A DNA stretch of 63,883 nucleotides, counting the filler, from Globobulimina sp. (lineage: Eukaryota): the NCBI GenBank assembly GCA_003354225.1. It is 53 parts of 53 records of this genome, joined end to end, with 100 filler letters (N's around TTAATTAATTAA, not from the genome) between each part and the next. Parts side by side here need not be neighbours in the genome. Positions count along the whole stretch, not along the records: positions 14,497 to 15,604 come from PIVH01023323.1; positions 15,705 to 16,812 come from PIVH01023324.1; 51 more parts are not named here. The stretch is one strand, 5' to 3'. Shown here piece by piece: positions 2,288-54,231 of the stretch. Position numbers and translations under genes: made by a program. Every line of letters begins with the position of its first letter. Position 1 is the first letter of the stretch. The notes beneath the pieces are model-generated. The model ran no database searches, was not told where the DNA came from, and was given only the letters and a program-made list of their open reading frames with translations.

Positions 2288-2503
2288 TTAAAATTCGGCA
2301 TTTTTACTAAAATTATNNNNNNNNNNNNNNNNNNNNNNNNNNNNNNNNNNNNNNNNNNNNTTAATTAATTAANNNNNNNNNNNNNNNNNNNNNNNNNNNN
2401 NNNNNNNNNNNNNNNNATAAGTCTATTCCAAATTTGGTTCTATCATTTCTATCATCAGCACTTATCAAAGTAGCCAACATATCTAAAAATCCACCATCTA
2501 TAA

Positions 2504-3337
2504 TCATTGCTTTAACATATTAATAAATATTTTAATAATATTCTGCGTAAGTTCATAAGCCCTGAAATCGCTGTTTGTTTTGAGCCAAACATTACAAACC
2601 GATGCAACAAAGCCTTCCATTGCCATGTATTTAAAAGTACCGCTACTCAATATTCCAGTTGTTATTTGCAGCAATGAATCCCCATCGTTAAGTTGCACCA
2701 ATTTATTCATAGTGTATGATAGCAACAATGCTCCTGTTTCATGTGATAAATGTGAGATATTCCAAGCGACAATGGAAAGAACCATATGATTGGATTTATT
2801 TCGAATCAATATCTGCTCGAATTTACGCACCAAATCTTCACTATATTCACGGAGATAAATAGGAGGAATGAAATCTTTTTGATATTGCTGACATAATTGA
2901 AGTGCATACAAATTCTTATCATCATCGTCAGACAAAATATTTTCAATTATTGCTCTTTTAAATGGGAGAATACGCATAAACGGCAATTCCTTATCAATGT
3001 CATTGACCGATGCGTCTCGTCTGGCGGCAATGGCTAATAATCGGTTACTTTGTTGCGCGGTATTTCGTTCATTTGGAGTTAGAAATCGCATCATATTCGA
3101 TAAACAGTCATAAGGTAAATCGGTGAGACATAGCGAGTGTACATTCTCATTGCGTTTATATTCATTATCTGTACATATGTTATCACTCAACAATTGATAT
3201 AATTTGTGATGCCTTTCAATGGATAATGTATGCAATGAATGTAACAATAACGACACAATTCCACCAATTGCAAACACATCATGGATAACATCATTTTGTA
3301 TTAATCGCAATTTGTTTGAATCGAATTGCTCCAACAA
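2504..3337 (-). CDS. F-box-like motif protein with helical C-terminus
   Basis: LTDLPYDCLSNMMRFL F-box-like motif within a 277-aa ORF. Confidence 0.45.
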   Translation of the reverse strand: MLEQFDSNKLRLIQNDVIHDVFAIGGIVSLLLHSLHTLSIERHHKLYQLLSDNICTDNEYKRNENVHSLCLTDLPYDCLSNMMRFLTPNERNTAQQSNRLLAIAARRDASVNDIDKELPFMRILPFKRAIIENILSDDDDKNLYALQLCQQYQKDFIPPIYLREYSEDLVRKFEQILIRNKSNHMVLSIVAWNISHLSHETGALLLSYTMNKLVQLNDGDSLLQITTGILSSGTFKYMAMEGFVASVCNVWLKTNSDFRAYELTQNIIKIFINMLKQ

Positions 3338-3405
3338 TTGATTATTTTGAATCTATCCACACTCAAATTTCTCACTTGTGCTGACTTGGTATAAACTGAA
3401 GGTGC

Positions 3406-3524
3406 CACTCATTTCAAAGTAAAATAACTAGCTACAATTTGGATATGATATAGCTGTATGTATTCTAACAACAGATCTGAAACCCATTTTGTGCCATTGT
3501 GGATAACAAAAAAGTTATACTCAC
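3406..3524. repeat. 119-bp repeat, copy 1 (identical to 61353-61471)
   Basis: Direct comparison: CACTCATTTCAAAGT...AAGTTATACTCAC identical; both copies end exactly at a contig end. Confidence 0.95.
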
Positions 3525-3642
3525 NNNNNNNNNNNNNNNNNNNNNNNNNNNNNNNNNNNNNNNNNNNNTTAATTAATTAANNNNNNNNNNNNNNNNNNNN
3601 NNNNNNNNNNNNNNNNNNNNNNNNTCCGTAATTTCTGCTCTA

Positions 3643-4685
3643 AAATGCCAGCCAGTTCTCAAAATGCCAGCCAAATGTTGCGTTTTCAAAGCAACCAGTT
3701 TTAACAGTCAAGTTCAGCGACTTCCCTTTAACAAACAAACAAAGAACAGTCGCGTTAAACAATCAACAAAGTATAAATCATTTAAACTTCAATTATAATG
3801 GTCATCTAGCTCAAGAAGAGCAATTGGCTTATACCATATATGCAGGTTCAATTCCTGCGGTGACTGGCTGTGGTGGAGACACGAAAGGTGCGTTTTTATT
3901 ATTTTAAATATATTGGTCGGTGGATATTAATATGACTACATACAATAAGGCATTTGGGGAAACAAACTGATTGGAACCATGCAATCTGTGATTGGAATCA
4001 GAATCATTGGATTATACCGCATTTCCGCATATCAAATTTGTGGAAAAGAATAAGTTATGGTGTAGGTCAAGGAGGTGGATGAATTTTGGTTAGCCACAAA
4101 GGAAAAGAGAGACAATATTTGTTTGGAAACAAGAACATATTATTGTGTGCAAGGATTGTTTTGTTGCTACAAAGTGCAAGGATATTAAAAAATGCAGCAT
4201 TTTTGCGCAAATGATAATTTTCTATACTATCCTTGCAAAACAAGTTCTCACCAAAAATATACGCCATATCACTCATCACTGCTTTTTGTATCAATTATCC
4301 AAATGATTGTCTCTTTTCCTTTGTGGCCAACCAAAATTCATCCACCTCCTTAACCTACACACCATAACCTATTCTTTTCGACAAATTTGATATGCGGAAA
4401 TGCGGATAATCATCTCTTAATCCAATGATTCGTCCTCCACTTTTATGTCCTCCACGTTCCTTTGATTATATTACGAATAATGCAAATAATAATATTCCAA
4501 TGGTAAAATACAATCCTATCCAAATTCCAGTTTCCCATTCATGACATTTCATGTGTACATAAATAAGTCTTTCATTTCCTATACAAACATAAAAGACAGC
4601 AAGAAAAATGACTAGAGAGCAGAGTGGTGAACCTAAAGTTGGAAAACAAGCATTTGGCTGGCATTTTGAAAACTGGCTGGCATTT
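3643..4685. mobile_element. Non-autonomous TIR element candidate with nested inner inverted repeat
   Basis: 35-bp inverted repeats 3643-3677 / 4651-4685 (1 mismatch); inner imperfect IR of about 120-130 bp at 4001-4121 / 4300-4431; no transposase ORF. Confidence 0.65.
3800..3866 (+). ncRNA. tRNA-like cloverleaf with degenerate anticodon arm
   Basis: Acceptor GGTCATC/GGTGACT, TA, D-arm GCTC-AAGAA-GAGC, T-arm GCAGG-TTCAATT-CCTGC; anticodon arm only TGG-CTTATA-CCA. Confidence 0.65.
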
Positions 4686-14396: not shown

Positions 14397-14526
14397 NNNN
14401 NNNNNNNNNNNNNNNNNNNNNNNNNNNNNNNNNNNNNNNNTTAATTAATTAANNNNNNNNNNNNNNNNNNNNNNNNNNNNNNNNNNNNNNNNNNNNCATT
14501 ATTTCTAAATAAGAAACCTCCTGGGG

Positions 14527-14773
14527 GCCAGACCTTAGAGGTCTGGCTTTTTTTTTTTGCCCAAGGTCGGACCTTAGAGGTCCGACCTACTCCCTAAAGG
14601 GTCGGACCTTAGAGGTCCGACCCGTGCCCCTAAAAGGTCCGACCGCTGCGGTCGGACAAGGGTCCGACCGCAGCGGTCGGACGGGCCCGGACATATAATG
14701 TCCGGGGTGAGGCAAGGGGGTTGGCTGCCCCGCCGCCTAAGGCCCCGCGTGTGCCCTACGGGCACACGCGGGG
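14527..14773. repeat. GC-rich array of seven perfect hairpins
   Basis: Stems at 14527-14547, 14564-14588, 14599-14623, 14637-14657, 14662-14682, 14686-14706, 14743-14773. Confidence 0.93.
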
Positions 14774-14893
14774 GTTTTTATCTTATTACCTGATTCGACA
14801 ACTAATGAAGAATGTCTACTTTATATACTCGAGGTTCATCCTATTTTTGCGATGTTGTCATCTTTTTGTGATGATGAATAAAATTTTATTTAT

Positions 14894-15565
14894 TTACAAC
14901 AACGATACATAACCGTATGGATGAGTAGAGTTTTTATTTTGTGGCCAGGTTTCTTCCGTGTTGAGCAGCATCGATTTGTCGTGCCTGAACCGTACTATTT
15001 TCTTGCTGTAAATCTCTTCTTTGAGTTTGGCTTTGAATCTGTCTCTAACGAGCCGCGGTTGTGGCACAATCAATCCGGAAGCTTTCTTGCTCGACCTGCT
15101 CTTGAACCATTTTTGTTGCATAAACGCGTCGAGACACGGTTTGACCAAGTCGTGGGGTAATTGATATCTACCCAAACGTTTATAGAATTCGTCGAAGGAC
15201 TGTCTTGGGGAAGCACCATCTTCGCCGACCATCTTCATGTCGATCAGATCATTCCAGAGTTGCCTATCATCAAACGAGTCCCTGATGCTCGATCCCAGAG
15301 CACCCAAATGTATTCCTGAAATATATGACTTACTACAATTTTTACTATTTTCTTATACCTTTTGACTTGATGATGGTTCTTTTGGGTTGCCAGGTGATGG
15401 GGTTTTCACCCGTTTTGATGGCCACTTCCACCCTATACGTCTTCGGTGCTATGCACTGGAAGCATGTGATGAACTCATTATTTTTAAGTTCATTGGTGAG
15501 TTGACCCAAAGCTTCACCTCTGATGGGTTCTGCTTCACCAGGGATACTCAGATAAACCAGGCTGT
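14894..15565 (-). CDS. Protein-primed family B DNA polymerase (Polinton pPolB), C-terminal part, spliced
   Basis: Exon 15565-15359 reads (D)SLVY...GEALGQLTNEL...ITCFQCIAPKTY...TIIKSK; after the 43-nt GT-AG intron 15316-15358 it continues GIHL...LVRD...KKIVRFRHDK...THPYGY. These are the DTDS, LGxLTxE, PKxY, KxKG and terminal PYGY motifs. Confidence 0.85.
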
Positions 15566-16233
15566 CTGAAAAGAGTGTTGGTATATTTTTGTTAAAAGAT
15601 AACANNNNNNNNNNNNNNNNNNNNNNNNNNNNNNNNNNNNNNNNNNNNTTAATTAATTAANNNNNNNNNNNNNNNNNNNNNNNNNNNNNNNNNNNNNNNN
15701 NNNNTTATCTTTTGCAGACGCAAGAATCCGATTTGTTTGAAGGTTTGAATTATCATTCGCCTGCCCGGCAGAAGTAGCAACCAGCAATACACCAAACAAT
15801 ACAACAATTTTATTCATATACCCCCCTTTCCTGATTCTGAATTAATAGGGTTCAGGTGATATAAATACAGGCCCGTATATTCAAATGTTAGCTCATGTGG
15901 CCCCTTACAGGTGGAATTCAATTTCGAGCTGTTTGTAAAACACATATATCACAAAAATCAGTTTGTCAAATTATAGCCGAGTCTAGAATACATTCCGATT
16001 GCCTGCCTGGAACCATAAAATTACTTATTTCGGAAAATATATGAGTTGATTCCAGACATGCGTTACCTGATACTGACAAATATTGCCCCTGCAAAACAAT
16101 TTCAAAATTTAACGGGGTAGTTGCCAGTGATCAGTGAAGATTTGGTATTATAAGCAGTTGGATTTTATTTGTTATTTGAGTTCTTTGATTTGAAATTAAT
16201 GAGCTGTTTGTTTGCACAAACCTCTACGCCGGC

Positions 16234-16358: not shown

Positions 16359-16812
16359 CTAATAGATGCCCGGATGTACCGGGGGCAACGGATAGTAGCC
16401 TTTGTCAAAATGGTCCATTATTTTGTCAGCCTCATCATCAGACACTTCAGCTCCCTTTTTCCGCATCTTCTTGATGATTTCTTTTGATAAGGTGCCCTTT
16501 TTATGGGCTGTCACAATCCGATCAAGTACGTGACATTTTGTACATTTCTGTACCAGCAGGTGACGGCTGGGGGCTGCAAGAAACGCTGCAATTTCCTCGG
16601 CTTCCTTGTCAGAGAGATCTGCGCCTTTCTTTTTTTGCATCTTCAATATTGTTTCAAGAAAACCCTTCTTTGACATGTGCATCTTTTTGGCCTTGTCGGA
16701 CTTATGGCATTTGCTGCACTTTGTTTCCATAAGTTCTGAAACAGCGACCTTTTGCTTATTCTCCTCAGCAAAGACACTGGATACAAACACGAAAAGTATC
16801 CCCATAAAAAAG
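16359..16812 (-). CDS. Bacterial periplasmic di-haem c-type cytochrome with internally duplicated domain
   Basis: Signal peptide (..SSVFA|EE), two CxxCH motifs (CSKCH, CTKCH), each followed by I.KM.KK.GA..SD.EA; a second signal-peptide ORF with GGGGGG SD starts near 15817 on the same strand. Confidence 0.85.
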
Positions 16813-18881: not shown

Positions 18882-19334
18882 GTTTTTGCTGTCGCCATTG
18901 ACTGCATGTTATATTATCATTTTTTATTGTTTTTATGTGCAAACACGTTATATTATATAGAAAATAAATAGATTAAATAACTCAGTTTAATCCAATGGTT
19001 GGCTCCGTCATTGGCATTGTTCCCGCCATTGCCATCACGTCTGTCTCTATTGCAGTTGTTATGGTTGTGGTTATTGTTGTGGTTATTATTCATATCGCTG
19101 CTTCTCTCCTCTTTTCGATCGCTATCGTTATTATTTTTTATTCCGAGGAGTACTTTTTCTCCTTTTTTTACGTATATCGGGAGAGAAACATCGCGTAGAT
19201 GTGCTGCCATGACATTGGCATTATTTCCNNNNNNNNNNNNNNNNNNNNNNNNNNNNNNNNNNNNNNNNNNNNTTAATTAATTAANNNNNNNNNNNNNNNN
19301 NNNNNNNNNNNNNNNNNNNNNNNNNNNNGATGCA

Positions 19335-20408
19335 TTGGAACGCGCATTGATGATATCAGTGCAAAACGCGAGCGCATTGGAACATGCATTAAGGATATCG
19401 GCAAAACAAGCAATCCCAACGAGCACTAATCACAATAATCATATTAATGACAACAATGACAACCGGCCGCGGAATAATAAACAGCAAAATGTGGTTATAT
19501 CCCTTGTTGAAAAACGAACGTATTTTTGTCGGATATGTGTTCCAAACAAAAAATATAAATCAAAAAAGCATTATGATAAACATATGGCACAACATAATAA
19601 TAATAGTCGACCATCCATAGTGGGTAAAAGAAAACATTTTGATCCGCCAAATACCAATCCACCAAGAATAAAATATAAAAAATGTGAACGTGAATCATCA
19701 TTGCTTACAGCCACAAAAAATAATAACAATACGAATAATAATAATATTGGACCATCCATAATGGGTAAAAGAAGACATTTTGATCCACCAAATACAAATA
19801 CATCTCGTCCAAGAAAAAAACACAAAAAATGTGAAATTGAATCCTCAATTACAGTCACAAAAATTAAATGTGATTTGGATATGGTTAAATTGCAAAGAAA
19901 TTCATATCTAAATAATAAAAACGGTGGTTGTTATATAAAATATAATGGGGAACCCTATCGATTGAAATTATATATTAATAAACTTACTGCTCACTTACAA
20001 ATGGCAAAAGCGAATGGCGTTTATTGTGAATATGAAGAATTGGGAAATGTAGATTATATTATTGTCATTGCACAGGATAACAATCGGAATAAATCCAACA
20101 TTTATTTGTCAGATTTTGCTGTGTTGCTGGATTCGAATGGGATTAAAAGATTAAAATTAACGCCAATTGTCAGGAAATATTACATTATGGAAAGGGAGCA
20201 AAGAATGGTTCATTGCAAAGGATATATGGTTCGATATACGCAATCAAGACAAGAAACAATGAATAAAATATGTGATTATTATTATAAATTGTTATATTTT
20301 TTCAATCATCGCAATGCGGGAAAAGAATTAATTTTGACAAAGCGGGGAATGCCGTATTCATTTCAAGAATTTCAAGAGACGGAAAGAAATATAATTATTT
20401 TGGATTAG
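19335..20408 (+). CDS. C2H2 zinc-finger protein with internal duplication
   Basis: CRIC...HYDKHMAQH; two copies of PSI.GKR.HFDPPNTN...KKCE.ESS. Confidence 0.6.
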   Translation: MERALMISVQNASALEHALRISAKQAIPTSTNHNNHINDNNDNRPRNNKQQNVVISLVEKRTYFCRICVPNKKYKSKKHYDKHMAQHNNNSRPSIVGKRKHFDPPNTNPPRIKYKKCERESSLLTATKNNNNTNNNNIGPSIMGKRRHFDPPNTNTSRPRKKHKKCEIESSITVTKIKCDLDMVKLQRNSYLNNKNGGCYIKYNGEPYRLKLYINKLTAHLQMAKANGVYCEYEELGNVDYIIVIAQDNNRNKSNIYLSDFAVLLDSNGIKRLKLTPIVRKYYIMEREQRMVHCKGYMVRYTQSRQETMNKICDYYYKLLYFFNHRNAGKELILTKRGMPYSFQEFQETERNIIILD

Positions 20409-20601
20409 TCACATTCAGTTTTTTAAATAATTTTTNNNNNNNNNNNNNNNNNNNNNNNNNNNNNNNNNNNNNNNNNNNNTTAATTAATTAANNNNNNNNN
20501 NNNNNNNNNNNNNNNNNNNNNNNNNNNNNNNNNNNTATAGGTGCAGGTACTATTAATTGTTAATTTTAATTCCATATAAACTAACAACTTGCCGCATGTA
20601 G

Positions 20602-22949: not shown

Positions 22950-23995
22950 CATCGCCGTTATCCGCAATTGAGCCTGTTCGTTGACCCAAACCGAAAACGT
23001 TTTGGATTTGTTCATAAATATACCCCGTCCCTGCGGCCAATCCCTTTCCATCCCCGCAACCTTCAAATTGGGATCGCCACTCACAAACAAAAAGTGGTCG
23101 TCCACCAGTTTCTGCCGAGTCTCCTCATCCATAGTCGCCAACGAATAATATGTGCCCGACAGCTCACCGCTTAGTGACTCGAACGCGCCTTTTATTAACG
23201 ACTCGACTGCCAAGCGATGCGTCTTTAATATGCCCGGACTTAAGCCGTAGCCTTCGATGTTTCTGCCGACGCGAATCCGGGTCGATTTTATAGGGATATC
23301 CGTGTGGATATTGCCGGTGATATCGTTGGCGTTCATATTGGAGATGTGTTTGCCATCGAAATTGTGATAATCTTCGATTATGGGATTGAATAACTCGGCG
23401 AAATCAACATAACAATCGTAGTCACCTTACGTTGTAATGTTTGATGTGGTGTGTTTGCTGGGTTTGTGCTGCGAAATTGCGTGTAATGTGCGACTGTGAC
23501 TGTTTTACCTGCATAAATGCCACAATGTTGGTTGTCGAATTGAACGGCGCACGCAATGCATTCGTCTAAGGTACAGCCGGAAGTTTTGGTTTTTTTGTCT
23601 TTTAACTTGTTGTAGATCGCAGGGGTCAAATATTTGGAGACTAAGGAATGTTGGCTCTGAATGTCTGGCATGGTTAATGGTGCTACGTTGGCATAATTGG
23701 TATAGGCATAGACACCACCACCGCCACCGGCTAATAATAATAATATAAATAGCTTAGCTCCGGCGGAGAAACCTTGACCATTTGAACTTGGCTCTGCTGT
23801 AAATCGACGAGTATTTAATTTAAGGAAATTGAAATTGTTGGTTCGAATTGATTTGGATTTGAATTGTATTGCTTTGGTGCGGATATTACGAGTTTTAAGC
23901 AATATAATTCGTAGGTTGGTGTGTGTTGGTCTTGTCTTTCTTAAACTTGTTGTAAAAGAGCGTCTTGCAATTCTGCAAATTGACAACAACGACAT
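22950..23995 (-). CDS. Phosphagen (ATP:guanido) kinase with mitochondrial-type presequence, one intron, 3'-truncated
   Basis: HSLVSKYLT, QHCGIYAG|DYD across intron 23426-23508, STRIRVGRN, LVDDHFLF, ERDWPQGRGIF, VWVNE. Confidence 0.93.
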
Positions 23996-24467
23996 TAGAC
24001 TCCTGCTAACTAACTTTTTTCTGTGAGCTATAACTGAAAGGTTCAATTACATGTCANNNNNNNNNNNNNNNNNNNNNNNNNNNNNNNNNNNNNNNNNNNN
24101 TTAATTAATTAANNNNNNNNNNNNNNNNNNNNNNNNNNNNNNNNNNNNNNNNNNNNATTTTGATAATCGGAGTTTGTTTTACCATTAATATTTGCTAAAA
24201 ACTAGAATTTTTTAACCTTTTGAATATTTATTATTCACACAAATACTTTACCTCAGCAATTCCCTGTAGATTAGTTTAGAAGGATTTGGTTTCGGAATAT
24301 CTCAACTATATATCTGAAAATAAATCACTCCGAGGCAATCACTCCGAACTTAGTCAAAATGTGAAATGTCGGCAACAAATTTCAGAATTTGAAGTTAATT
24401 TGTTGCCAAATGTACGAAACAAAACGAAAAGTAGCCTTTTCAACGAGGGTAACAGTTTAAGAATAAA

Positions 24468-49651: not shown

Positions 49652-50719
49652 TCGATCCATTGAACTGTTTATTTGTTGCAAACAATTCGAAATAAAAGTA
49701 TGTTACAATATAAAATAGAAAACGTAATATATATATTTATGTAATATAAAATAGAAAATGTAATATAAATATAAATATAAAATGGATGTGTTTGGGTGTG
49801 GTTAATGCGAGAATTTGGTGGATGTGTTTGAGTGTGCAATTTGCGGACATGATATTGGATGTGTTTGTGCCGGGTAAAAGTGCACGTCATATATATATAT
49901 ATATTATAACATACATGTTTTGTGTGGATCGATGTGCTCAGACAGTAGTCTAAAACATCCACTTCAAAACTGTTTTAACCATGGCAACGTCAAACCATGT
50001 ATGCTGTGGTTCTTATAAATCATATTCGGCTCCAGCTCGAATCATTTCATATGAAGGAAGAATATGGGATCATTTATTCGGCTCCAGCTGTGGTTCATCA
50101 TCACAAAAAAACGCGGAGCAGCAAACTCCATCTAAACAATATAAATCTGCATCATCACCGCCACAGCCAAACGATGACCCTCAATATGAACCATCAGCAG
50201 CTCCACCACCACCTCTCCCAAAAGAACGCTGCGTCGTGCCTCCAAAAATGACATTAACTAAATATAGCCGCGACCATATGTATTAAATAACTTTTATAAT
50301 ATAATTTTATGTATTAAATAACTATACCAATGTTCTTTTATAATAATTTTATTTGTTTTAATTAATTTAAACCATTGAATCTTGCCGCAGATATGTGCGG
50401 ATTGCCGCAGCCTTTGACGCTTCTGATATGTGCGGATCTGCGCGATACAAAAACCAGCACAAAAATCTACTTTAAAACTTTTTTAAACATGTCACTTTCC
50501 CCACAACCGCTTGAGTCTTCTTCAACGCGTTCAAAATCTGCGCCAGCTCTCCCTCGATCAGCATCACATATTCTTCAGTCTTCTGTGCGAAAAACAGAAT
50601 CTGTGCCGCCNNNNNNNNNNNNNNNNNNNNNNNNNNNNNNNNNNNNNNNNNNNNTTAATTAATTAANNNNNNNNNNNNNNNNNNNNNNNNNNNNNNNNNN
50701 NNNNNNNNNNGAGCCTAAA

Positions 50720-51817
50720 GTGAATGGAAATGGTTATTTTGATTCAAATGACAGGTACAGACTTTTCCCTTATTTCAATTTATGTTGGAAATGTCGAGGC
50801 AAAGGACACCTTCATAAAGAATGTACTGTTCCCCGAGAACTTTGTGTCAAAAAGAGGAGACATTTCGCTATGAGAGTCGATGGTAATCGTCAAATTCGTC
50901 AAAAGCGTCAATACAGTACCCCTATCGTTGCTCCTACCGTTTCCCATGGTTCGAAACATGTGGTGATGGATTCTGGAGTGTTTTCACACATGACTTTTGA
51001 TGGTAGCAAGTTATCGGACTATAAAAGATTCAATGTGTCTCATTCTGTGTCATTTTATGATGGTTCTACTGCTCAAGCTGTTGGTACCGGCAGCCTTACC
51101 CTAAAAATGACTGTAAATGGCATTGATTCCTTTTTCCTCCTATCAGATTGTCTACATGTCCCAGTGTTGCCATGTCATGTTGTGTCGGTTGGTGCTGTTG
51201 TCTCAAGTGGTGGTAAAACAGCCGAATTCTATGGTAATTCAGCTGTTATCAAGTCAGAAAGTGGTCAGGTTATTTTGTGTGGCCACAGAATCAATGGAAT
51301 ATATGTTGCTGATGCAGTGGTAGTGCATGCAGCTCAGTCAGATTTCGTCAATCATCAAGGACATAATCTTTCTGCCCAGAGGTTTGATAGTTTTGCCTAC
51401 AAGTCAAAAACTATCACAGAAAAAGCCACCGATTCGTCAACATGTGGTCATGACTGTCAACGCGACACCAAGTTATTTTGTGGTGAGAAAATGGTCGTTG
51501 GTCATGCAAATTCAAATAATCATTCTGTTAGTGACCAAAGTATTCATTTTGATGCGATAAAGCTATGGAGCAATGGTCAATTTGGAATAGACAATCAAAG
51601 TTCATGTCCAGAAAATGACATTTTCGGATCCCCAGACAGTAGACCGGTCAGTTCTTTATTGTATGCGCATACAGAAAGTGTGGATTCGTCAGTGATTCTC
51701 AAGGGTCACTCAGGTCAAGCAACTGATGGTTATTCAGTCAATGATTATGAAAATTCGGACATTCATACAGTTTCTGGCCAGAGCATTCAACGTGACACCA
51801 CATCGTTATTGCCAGGT
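50720..51817 (+). mobile_element. Ty1/copia LTR retrotransposon gag-protease fragment
   Basis: CCHC knuckle CWKCRGKGHLHKEC; VVMDSGVFSHMT protease motif; G.GSL.L...LSDCLHVP.L...VVSVG. Confidence 0.85.
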
Positions 51818-53024: not shown

Positions 53025-53130
53025 NNNNNNNNNNNNNNNNNNNNNNNNNNNNNNNNNNNNNNNNNNNNTTAATTAATTAANNNNNNNNNNNNNNNNNNNN
53101 NNNNNNNNNNNNNNNNNNNNNNNNGATGAA

Positions 53131-54231
53131 ATGTTCAAGAGAATTTCAAAGGGTATTGCAGATGACAAGGTTAAATCTATTGTTGTACCGGTACTGCAGA
53201 AAGTTACAAATGTAACATCTCTGCTGGGTGCAAAGGGGTTAAAGAAAAAAGTATTTGCAGCGAAGAAACTATTTTACACAGAACAATTTGCAAATTGTAA
53301 GGATCCTGGGTCATATTGGAAGACCATCAAAAATGTCACTGGTCGTTCTACCCATTCAAACCTCCCTGATCTCATCACCACTGAAGGGACTGTGTCCACC
53401 AGCGAAGCCAAAGCAAATGCGTTAGCTGACCAATATGACACTGTTTTCAACACGACTAATGGTGATTTCCCAGTATCTAGTGATCAAGACATTGATGCAG
53501 AATGGTTATGTGATGAAGATTTTGTATATGAACAATTAACATCACTGGACATTAAAAAAGCCAATGGCATTGATGGTATTACAGCAAGGATGTTGTCAGA
53601 ATCTGCTCCTGTAATTGTTCCCTCCATCACTCTTCTTATAAATCGCTCATTTGTTGAAGGAGTTGTCCCATCCGAATGGAAAATGACCATTGTATCACCT
53701 ATACCAAAAGTGAAAAATTCCCCTCATCCTTCTGATTATCGACCAGTTTCTCTGCTGTGCATTATTTCCAAAATTGCAGAACGTTCTTTTGCCAGAAACC
53801 TTGGCCCTTTGATTGATTCAAAATTGCCTTCAATGCAGTATGGTTTCAGACGTTGCCGATCCACAGAGGATGCTGTGGCTTTACTGGAACATAAAGTAAT
53901 TAACTGTTTCAATGATTGTTCTGGTGTCACCAAAGTGTGTGGAATTTTCTTCGACCTGTCAAAAGCATTTGATAAAGTTCCCATTGGTCACTTACTCACT
54001 GCATTACAAATGACATATGTGATACCACCTGGTGCCCTGAAATGGTTAAGGTCCTATCTCACTGAAAGAAAACAAACTGTTCATGTAAATGGGTCATTTT
54101 CAAGTGAACGAGATGTCATGTCAGGGGTTCCACAAGGATCGGTTCTTGGTCCTATGTTATTCAATGCTTATTCTGCTCCTGCCCTCCAAATATTGATGTC
54201 CCCTGGCGCAACATGCATTGCTTATGCTGAC
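53131..54231 (+). mobile_element. Non-LTR retrotransposon reverse transcriptase (CR1/L2/Jockey-group-like)
   Basis: KANGIDGI, DYRPVSLL, QYGFR..RST, FFDLSKAFDKV, GVPQGSVLGPMLF, YAD at the contig end. Confidence 0.95.

Follow-up and report, generated by a model that had tools for sequence, protein, structure and literature searches.

Putative protein-primed DNA polymerase gene end from a Globobulimina sp. assembly with predicted introns at conserved positions

Can the gene for the DNA polymerase of a mobile element or virus be split by introns, one of them inside a codon of the enzyme's own catalytic motif? The question is raised by a single 1108-bp contig (PIVH01023323.1, positions 14497-15604) in a 63,883-base stretch of DNA, referred to here as the window, from the Globobulimina sp. 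assembly GCA_003354225.1. A sequence-only reading of this contig had proposed that it holds the C-terminus of a protein-primed DNA polymerase B (pPolB) gene, with one intron lying within the DTDS motif. In the analysis described here, the contig is best explained as the last two exons of the pPolB gene of an unclassified mobile element or DNA virus that would be expressed in a eukaryotic nucleus, an interpretation to which we assign a probability of roughly 0.75. The window itself consists of 53 separate contigs of 1106-1108 bp each, ordered by size and joined by spacers of the form N...TTAATTAATTAA...N. Because this concatenation is artificial, any inference across a spacer (operons, gene neighbors, or a shared host) is invalid. 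The polymerase locus stands alone on its contig, on the minus strand, with an overall guanine-plus-cytosine (GC) fraction of 0.459, and the contigs on either side are physically unlinked to it.

Anatomy of the gene end and its interruptions

The end of the polymerase gene is laid out as follows, in the order of transcription:

15566-15604, minus strand: predicted upstream phase-1 intron, of which the 3'-terminal 39 nt are present; the contig begins inside it, its acceptor CTCTTTTCAG ends at 15566, and its GC is 0.256
15359-15565, minus strand: penultimate exon (207 nt), both of whose boundaries are phase 1; recognized by translation and by 66% identity to the protein P0003
15316-15358, minus strand: predicted 43-nt GT-AG intron, phase 1 (GTATAAG...TTTCAG), splitting a Gly codon as G/GA; GC 0.209
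14894-15315, minus strand: last exon, 139 codons plus TAA (14894-14896); recognized by translation and by its relatives P0004-P0007 and L001

The exon structure is evident in the DNA. The minus-strand frame from 15602 to 15359 translates to LSFNKNIPTLFSDSLVY...LGQLTNEL...FQCIAPKTY...KSK, and the portion that follows the acceptor, (D)SLVYLSIPGEAEPIRGEALGQLTNEL...FQCIAPKTY...IIKSK, constitutes the penultimate exon, which ends at G 15359. The final G of CTCTTTTCAG is base 1 of the GAC codon before SLVY. After the donor of the 43-nt intron, TAG and TAA codons occur in frame; removal of the 43 nt joins KSK-G to IHLGALG, in agreement with the conserved start seen in relatives, and the last-exon frame (15315-14897) then reads (G)IHLGALG...PYGYVSLL before closing with TAA at 14896-14894. 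Both acceptors on the contig are preceded by a T-rich tract. The anatomy proposed earlier, comprising the 43-nt intron at 15316-15358, the acceptor at 15566, and the exon peptides, was correct throughout on re-reading.

Since the second acceptor is reached after only 39 nt of contig, the upstream exon with its YCDT lies outside the window. Motif C is therefore represented here by the (D)S that follows the acceptor only, and the complete YCDT...DSLVY is found in P0003. The penultimate exon would encode what remains of polymerase motif C, together with the KxY region and the palm's end, and the last exon is probably the thumb or C-terminal domain of the polymerase, as judged by position alone. 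An AlphaFold2 model built on the last-exon alignment of five sequences was unusable (mean pLDDT 45.3, pTM 0.34). As another way of accounting for the in-frame stops, a ciliate-type stop reassignment was considered by eye; it fails across the 43 nt, with the exon frame still off register and running into a TGA.

One line of evidence that the interruptions are introns comes from P0003, a 208-residue metagenomic protein encoded on a 1279-bp ENA contig and found by a word-seeded protein search. It shares 66% identity with the penultimate exon (E 9.9e-29 in the library search and 1e-40 in a pairwise comparison), and its similarity to the polymerase contig ends directly after KSKG. The gene caller read P0003 straight through, yielding ...GAYVTAYARTTLL...ALYCDT, then 19 unrelated residues, then DSLVY. 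The interruptions occur at the same two codons as here and consist of unrelated sequence; their lengths, inferred from the translation, are approximately 57 and 50 nt, whereas the polymerase contig has no fewer than 39 nt at the first and precisely 43 nt at the second. Furthermore, the read-through residues G-K and G-M that follow the breaks fit GT donors, and the second interruption of P0003 ends in F-F-Q, fitting a TTYTTYCAR stretch. On the breakage of P0003 at the same codons by segments of other length and sequence, and on the further observations given below, the introns are judged to be real. The gene is split by predicted spliceosomal GT-AG introns at positions conserved across copies that are only 66% identical, and the intron placed by the earlier reading inside the second Asp codon of DTDS is likewise judged to be real, the succession of YCDT, 19-residue read-through, and DSLVY in P0003 bearing that claim out.

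P0003 differs from the polymerase contig in one further respect. Its residues ~111-130 form a 20-residue insertion between IP.E and AEP.RGEALGQL, the end of which (AERVRD...) resembles the following AEPVRGE, and the insertion looks like a short tandem duplication, not a third intron.

Additional observations concern the coding status of the segments. The relatives P0004-P0007 are free-standing open reading frames (ORFs) that begin no more than about 10 residues from the last-exon boundary, and the invariant last-exon residues R18, L20, W21, L24, and I25 all lie upstream of the first in-frame ATG, which argues that the last exon is not a separate, ATG-initiated gene. Base composition follows the proposed boundaries, with a GC of 0.46 in the exons, 0.21 in the 43-nt intron, 0.26 in the partial intron, and 0.27 in the 3' untranslated stretch. 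Between the last exon and L001, a metagenomic relative compared over 116 codons, differences number 26, 13, and 51 at the first, second, and third codon positions, and the differing codons comprise 38 synonymous and 29 non-synonymous changes. Judging from this substitution pattern, the last exon is coding and under purifying selection.

An assembly artifact had been named as a possible source of the 43-nt segment. A Logan assembly of sequencing run X1 spans 14861-15588 and also includes the segment, which is therefore no quirk of a single assembler contig; X1 may be the source sample, and its reads are probably not independent. The 617-nt Logan contig shows only two differences, T>C at 15349 and an additional A after 15331, both of them intronic. 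A further X1 variant at 15477 (AAT>AAC) is synonymous and lies in the penultimate exon.

Homology of the putative polymerase and distribution of its relatives

The assignment to pPolB is carried by the upstream exon of P0003, which precedes the intron within DTDS. In a BLASTP comparison with the phi29 polymerase (E 5e-5), residues 42-80 of P0003 fall on 418-454, with TAYAR placed on TAWAR and the alignment stopping exactly at YCDT. In local alignment, the z-score is 8.6 with phi29 and 11.4 with L004, an intronless phage-like polymerase, and 0/300 shuffles scored as well in each case. A profile was built from 70 phage pPolB C-terminal regions, out of 77 loci examined, and on this profile the upstream exon scores 33.7 bits (E 1.3e-12 at Z = 1; 0/200 shuffles). 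When P0003 is given an X at the junction, the profile alignment carries on across it, with DS-i opposite XS-L. Together, these scores establish the pPolB homology of the upstream exon by sequence comparison. Since this pPolB-like exon is contiguous with an exon homologous to the DSLVY exon of the contig, the family is taken to be pPolB, and the contig is judged to carry its C-terminal third. The pPolB C-terminus of the earlier reading is thereby upheld, by way of P0003. P0003 residues 22-50 align between motif B and Tx2GR, which we take to be the site of TPR2; this placement is suggestive only.

Embedding searches point in the same direction as leads only. Of 30 P0003 neighbors in the ESM Atlas, 18 fall in a family set topped by a cluster labeled "DNA polymerase family protein", 17% of whose members carry PF03175. 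The penultimate exon alone gave a best score of 0.86 and mixed retroelement fragments, an uninformative result.

The phage loci served as a reference set only. An IMG/VR scan with the phi29 and L004 alignment (A6) returned 76 phage pPolB loci. L004 itself (also L008; IMGVR_UViG_3300031998_002773) is a 14-kb contig on which the ORF at 2381-4468 encodes a 695-residue intronless pPolB matching PF03175 (E 2.1e-11), followed by an ATPase-like ORF and capsid-sized ORFs; it was used only as a reference polymerase. Approximately 18 contigs like it, 8-15 kb in length, appeared in the same scan (L009-L025, 46-74% identity).

A number of results weigh against this assignment and against the introns. In Pfam, neither exon of the contig, taken singly, matched any family at E <= 10, and the same was true of P0003, PF03175 included; PHROGs gave no family for either exon at that threshold, and a PDB sequence search with the penultimate exon and P0003 returned chance rows only (E ~1). 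P0004, P0005, and P0007 also drew nothing from Pfam, and all of these Pfam queries were short, interrupted pieces with the exons apart. Local alignments of the penultimate and last exons to phi29 and L004 were no better than those of shuffles. On the 70-sequence profile, the penultimate exon scored 0.6-0.8 bits (4/200 shuffles as good) and the X-joined exons -0.9 bits (31/200). The exonuclease motifs, motifs A and B, and TPR1 all lie beyond the contig. Because the contig's own exons are without a significant match, its pPolB identity rests on the contiguity of one homolog. In addition, the intron in DTDS can be read through in frame, over 13 codons here and 19 in P0003, without meeting a stop, making the sequence in itself compatible with intron retention. 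Finally, IMG/VR, JGI metagenomes, GTDB, the phage collection, and the protein libraries yielded no relative that was longer, full-length, or intronless.

The motif order that had been noted by eye in the contig's exons therefore stands in part. The profile alignment, weak and non-significant as it is, places LG....E and K-T-Y on lG....e and K-t-Y, colinear with motif C, so that the order agrees with the phage profile and falls short of statistical significance. The same division applies to the profile comparison as a whole, in which the contig's exons, singly or X-joined, have no significant match and the upstream exon of P0003 scores clearly.

Relatives of the family are few and fragmentary. 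An exhaustive HMMER search with the last exon over 1.84 billion representatives returned five proteins at E <= 0.001, four of which (P0004-P0007; 112-149 residues, 49-60% identity) are true relatives; the fifth, P0008, a 423-residue repeat protein (E 4.7e-5, 29% identity), is taken to be spurious. No long protein relative of the last exon, Polinton-type or other, was present among these representatives. A scan of JGI metagenomes yielded L001 (PJEL010265937.1, 1133 bp; 75% identity to the last exon) as its sole relative. There are seven relatives in all, on contigs of 548-1366 bp, and members of the family are represented in databases by anonymous fragments of 112-208 residues only.

Word-seeded searches for longer proteins, with the last exon and with P0003 as queries, found none, and a tblastn search of P0003 against 50,697 phage records was without a match. 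IMG/VR scans with both exons singly and with alignment A1 gave no relative, the hairpin-box pattern described below gave no match, and P0003 aligned with phi29 retrieved only L004, a phage-like contig with an ordinary intronless pPolB. Several hits were set aside as chance matches: L002, recovered from IMG/VR with back-translated YCDTDSLVY, in a haloarchaeal-virus-like contig; two IMG/VR matches to the gene-end motif, inside coding sequence; and L005 from the GTDB genome scan (LIKPCLDAF), on a bacterial contig of 65-70% GC.

Downstream region, source contigs, and host

Beyond the stop codon, the contig holds a compact series of candidate signals:

14885-14894, minus strand: two overlapping AATAAA hexamers at the stop codon, a candidate poly(A) signal
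14845-14878, minus strand: conserved gene-end motif with core TCATCACAAAAAGATGAC (14857-14874), containing a 5-bp inverted repeat and kept in 3/3 copies
14526-14773, no strand assigned: GC-rich (0.65) palindrome cluster of 248 nt, with about seven perfect or near-perfect palindromes

The gene-end motif lies approximately 20 nt past the AATAAA hexamers. It occurs once in the 63.9-kb window, and the copies compared are this one and two in L001, where AATAAA precedes copy 1 and ACAATAAAA precedes copy 2. Roughly 120 nt separate the stop codon from the palindrome cluster, past which 29 AT-rich bases of contig remain; the cluster includes a 46-nt palindrome made from two 21-nt palindromes, together with three related 23-nt units. 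Folded as DNA, it reaches -107 kcal/mol (z = -13.5), and 0/100 shuffles were as stable. No Rfam family passed its gathering threshold anywhere on the contig.

The layout recurs in L001 up to the point where that contig ends, with a perfect hairpin of entirely different stem sequence. A GGCGGyGG...CAACCCCC box is common to both contigs, and in the L001 palindrome around CCGCTGCGG the outer stem bases differ on both sides, complementarily. It is thus the structure and not the sequence that is conserved in L001, which suggests that the cluster serves some function in the element; most plausibly, it would be a cis element, either of origin type or located close to an end. The two contigs each stop within the cluster or shortly past it.

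L001 also carries, at 479-697, an extra 72-codon ORF between the polymerase gene and the hairpin cluster, for which a sub-threshold DUF2155 row was the only match. This ORF is bracketed by gene-end motif copies near 400-425 and 935-965 and resembles a cassette equipped with a terminator or poly(A) element of its own.

For the remainder of the window, a Pfam scan covered 66 ORFs of at least 110 codons over all contigs. The matches are mostly eukaryotic, including Mob1/phocein, EF-hand, an arginine-kinase-type phosphotransferase, aldehyde dehydrogenase, a dual-specificity phosphatase, and retroelement Pol fragments, and also comprise one bacterial-looking cytochrome c. The source is therefore a eukaryote-rich mixed assembly. 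The cytochrome, a secreted, di-haem-like protein with weak Cytochrome-c551 and Cytochrome_CBB3 matches, is encoded by the ORF at 16362-16811 on a bacterial-looking contig (15705-16812, minus strand) that is unrelated to the polymerase contig. Retroelement fragments span the whole of the contigs at 50711-51817 and 53125-54231 (both plus strand, GC ~0.40), with domains of the Pol polyprotein beta-barrel (E 1.6e-13) and RVT_1 (E 3.6e-23). Asn-/His-rich, low-complexity ORFs at 19329-20435 and 18953-19276, on contigs of ~31-34% GC, are typical of an AT-rich, protist-like genome, which is probably that of the dominant organism of the assembly.

With regard to the host, the sequence-only reading had taken the TTTCAG acceptors as nematode-style and as different from those of other spliced genes in the window. 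The first of these points is not supported, as TTTCAG after a T-rich tract is not diagnostic of nematodes, and the sole other nematode hint is the label of one ESM Atlas neighbor cluster, a lead only. The second is partly sustained: the other spliced genes are on unrelated contigs, and one checked gene (n = 1) does differ. This is an arginine-kinase-type gene (ATP-gua_PtransN, ATP-gua_Ptrans) at 22950-24056, minus strand, with an 83-nt, CA-rich GT-AG intron at ~23426-23508 that ends in GTAAG. The difference fits the idea of a different host, as a single case on an unlinked contig.

Competing explanations and known systems

If the contig does carry the last two exons of a pPolB gene, short, AT-rich GT-AG introns would interrupt that gene at positions kept in relatives. 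One would split the second-Asp codon of the catalytic YCDTDS motif, and the 43-nt intron would split the Gly codon at which the palm (ending in KSK-G) gives way to the C-terminal domain. Both introns would have to be spliced for the polymerase to be active, so that the element would depend on the host spliceosome. The spliced enzyme would be expected to use protein priming to copy a linear genome. The gene would close with its AATAAA signals and the conserved gene-end motif, and the conserved GC-rich hairpins that come next would likely act in cis as an end or origin-proximal structure of the element. A bolder proposal is that the contig represents a new lineage of spliceosome-dependent, linear pPolB elements or viruses, with old replicase introns that are conserved in position, one of them in the aspartate codon of DTDS, a lineage-specific C-terminal domain unmatched in any long predicted protein, and hairpin-rich, possibly terminal cis elements; we regard this as tentative, with the odds against it.

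Among more specific and alternative explanations, the one with the greatest weight is a sub-case of the preferred reading, namely that the element is a Polinton/Maverick (polintovirus- or adintovirus-type) whose core polymerase gained spliceosomal introns. Polintons are the commonest nuclear carriers of pPolB in eukaryotes (reviewed, in the portion available to us, in PMC5718144), eukaryotic sequence predominates on the remaining contigs of the assembly, and the ESM Atlas neighbors of P0003 include, as a lead only, a PF03175 cluster labeled Preplasmiviricota and a eukaryotic cluster of mostly Nematoda. Set against these points are the intronless Maverick core genes described in the available text for nematodes (10.1101/2022.07.12.499685) and vertebrates (PMC8097293), and the lack of any long, Polinton-type protein match to the last exon among the 1.84 billion representatives. 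The partners by which a Polinton would be recognized (rve integrase, double jelly-roll major and minor capsid proteins, adenain-like protease, FtsK-type ATPase, and terminal inverted repeats with a 6-bp target-site duplication) are outside the reach of a 1108-bp contig. We consider this sub-case a serious possibility that stays somewhat below an even chance. A small linear virus with hairpin or inverted-repeat termini, similar to bidnaviruses or "bidnaparvoviruses" and spliced in the host nucleus, would instead make the palindromes its terminal repeat. Such an arrangement would account for a GC-rich, multi-palindrome cluster ~120 nt past the stop codon and AATAAA that is conserved in L001, and it would explain why both contigs stop within the cluster or shortly past it, terminal repeats being a frequent breaking point of assemblies; parvoviruses commonly carry small introns, and bidnavirus-like PolB contigs are known from metagenomes, according to the available text of PMC8502044. 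The 29 AT-rich bases past the cluster mean that the hairpins are not demonstrably at a physical end, however, and they form an array and not one large T- or Y-shaped palindrome. Protein searches also found no similarity to any long PolB, the contig carries neither NS1 nor a parvovirus-type capsid gene, and this explanation is considered unlikely.

Decay of a viral insertion raises a different issue, for if the contig were a decayed or host-domesticated endogenous viral fragment, the "introns" could be pseudogene insertions or gains that followed capture by the host. The relatives are indeed known only as fragments on short contigs, the pieces go unrecognized by Pfam, and P0003 has its 20-residue insertion relative to the polymerase contig. 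Decay is nonetheless difficult to reconcile with purifying selection on the last exon between copies that are 75% identical, or with the same interruption points and canonical GT...AG ends in copies sharing only 66% identity, and the gene-end motif repeated around the ORF cassette of L001 suggests a compact element over random host flanks. Domestication with intron gain would be compatible with all of these points; on balance, the fragment hypothesis appears improbable. Still less credence is given to non-spliceosomal solutions, in which an organellar or cytoplasmic linear plasmid would restore the frame through frameshifting, bypass, or another route, or in which the last "exon" would be a separate gene. 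It is true that pPolB genes occur on linear mitochondrial and cytoplasmic plasmids, and some mitochondrial DNAs commonly contain clusters of GC-rich palindromes. The GT...AG ends, the T-rich tract at both acceptors, the P0003 read-through residues that fit GT donors and TTYTTYCAR, the phase-1 boundaries at both interruptions, and the TAG and TAA after the donor all speak for splicing, and the conserved start of the last exon has no ATG ahead of it and an AATAAA at its other end. Solutions of this kind are very improbable.

The reading of the contig as the last two exons of a pPolB gene, if true, has consequences for how such elements are found. Surveys of Polinton-like and endogenous DNA viruses commonly use prokaryotic gene calling and assume no introns, as far as the available part of PMC10120064 describes, and a methods remark in that source says that protist endogenous viruses lack introns. 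Surveys of this type would systematically miss a pPolB lineage whose introns are conserved and include one in the catalytic motif; such a lineage would be invisible to the prokaryote-style gene calling used in Polinton-like virus mining. Likewise, the replication of a self-replicating element would be tied to the splicing of the host nucleus, which bears on where and how it is expressed. The value of the finding is limited for now, as the family is known from ~210 codons and one end region.

Like the phi29 pPolB, P0003 has a Tx2(A/G)R-type motif (TAYAR vs TAWAR) and YCDT at the same spacing, and the contig presents DS-hydrophobic, LG....E, K-T-Y, and K..G in the same order, the first three being colinear on the profile with a non-significant score. 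Unlike phage pPolB genes, the gene described here is predicted to be split by at least two short GT-AG introns, and neither the stretch past motif C nor the C-terminal domain of 139 residues shows detectable similarity to the phage enzymes. The linear, PolB-encoding viruses of the Bidnaviridae or "bidnaparvovirus" kind resemble the contig in that a pPolB gene adjoins a palindrome-rich region, putatively terminal, and in that expression in the nucleus is plausible; they differ in that no sequence similarity was detected, and the hairpins here are only putatively terminal. Polinton/Maverick and adintovirus polymerases share the pPolB type and, by inference, the eukaryotic setting. Their genes are intronless in the portions of the literature that were available, whereas here two intron positions are conserved at 66% identity. 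In that same literature on introns in Polinton and pPolB genes, no spliceosomal intron in a pPolB core gene is reported, a result that is not proof of absence. The nearest precedent for the introns, within this literature, is the set of introner insertions in dinoflagellate eupolintoviral elements (PMC12166617). As presented in the available text of that source, these insertions provide a precedent for intron-type sequences in Polinton-like integrated elements; they are transposon-derived introners, and no conserved introns in a polymerase catalytic motif are described there. The introns considered here, at 43 and ~50-57 nt, belong to no repeat family detected in the window, and would place their interruptions, at positions shared between divergent copies, within the replicase itself.

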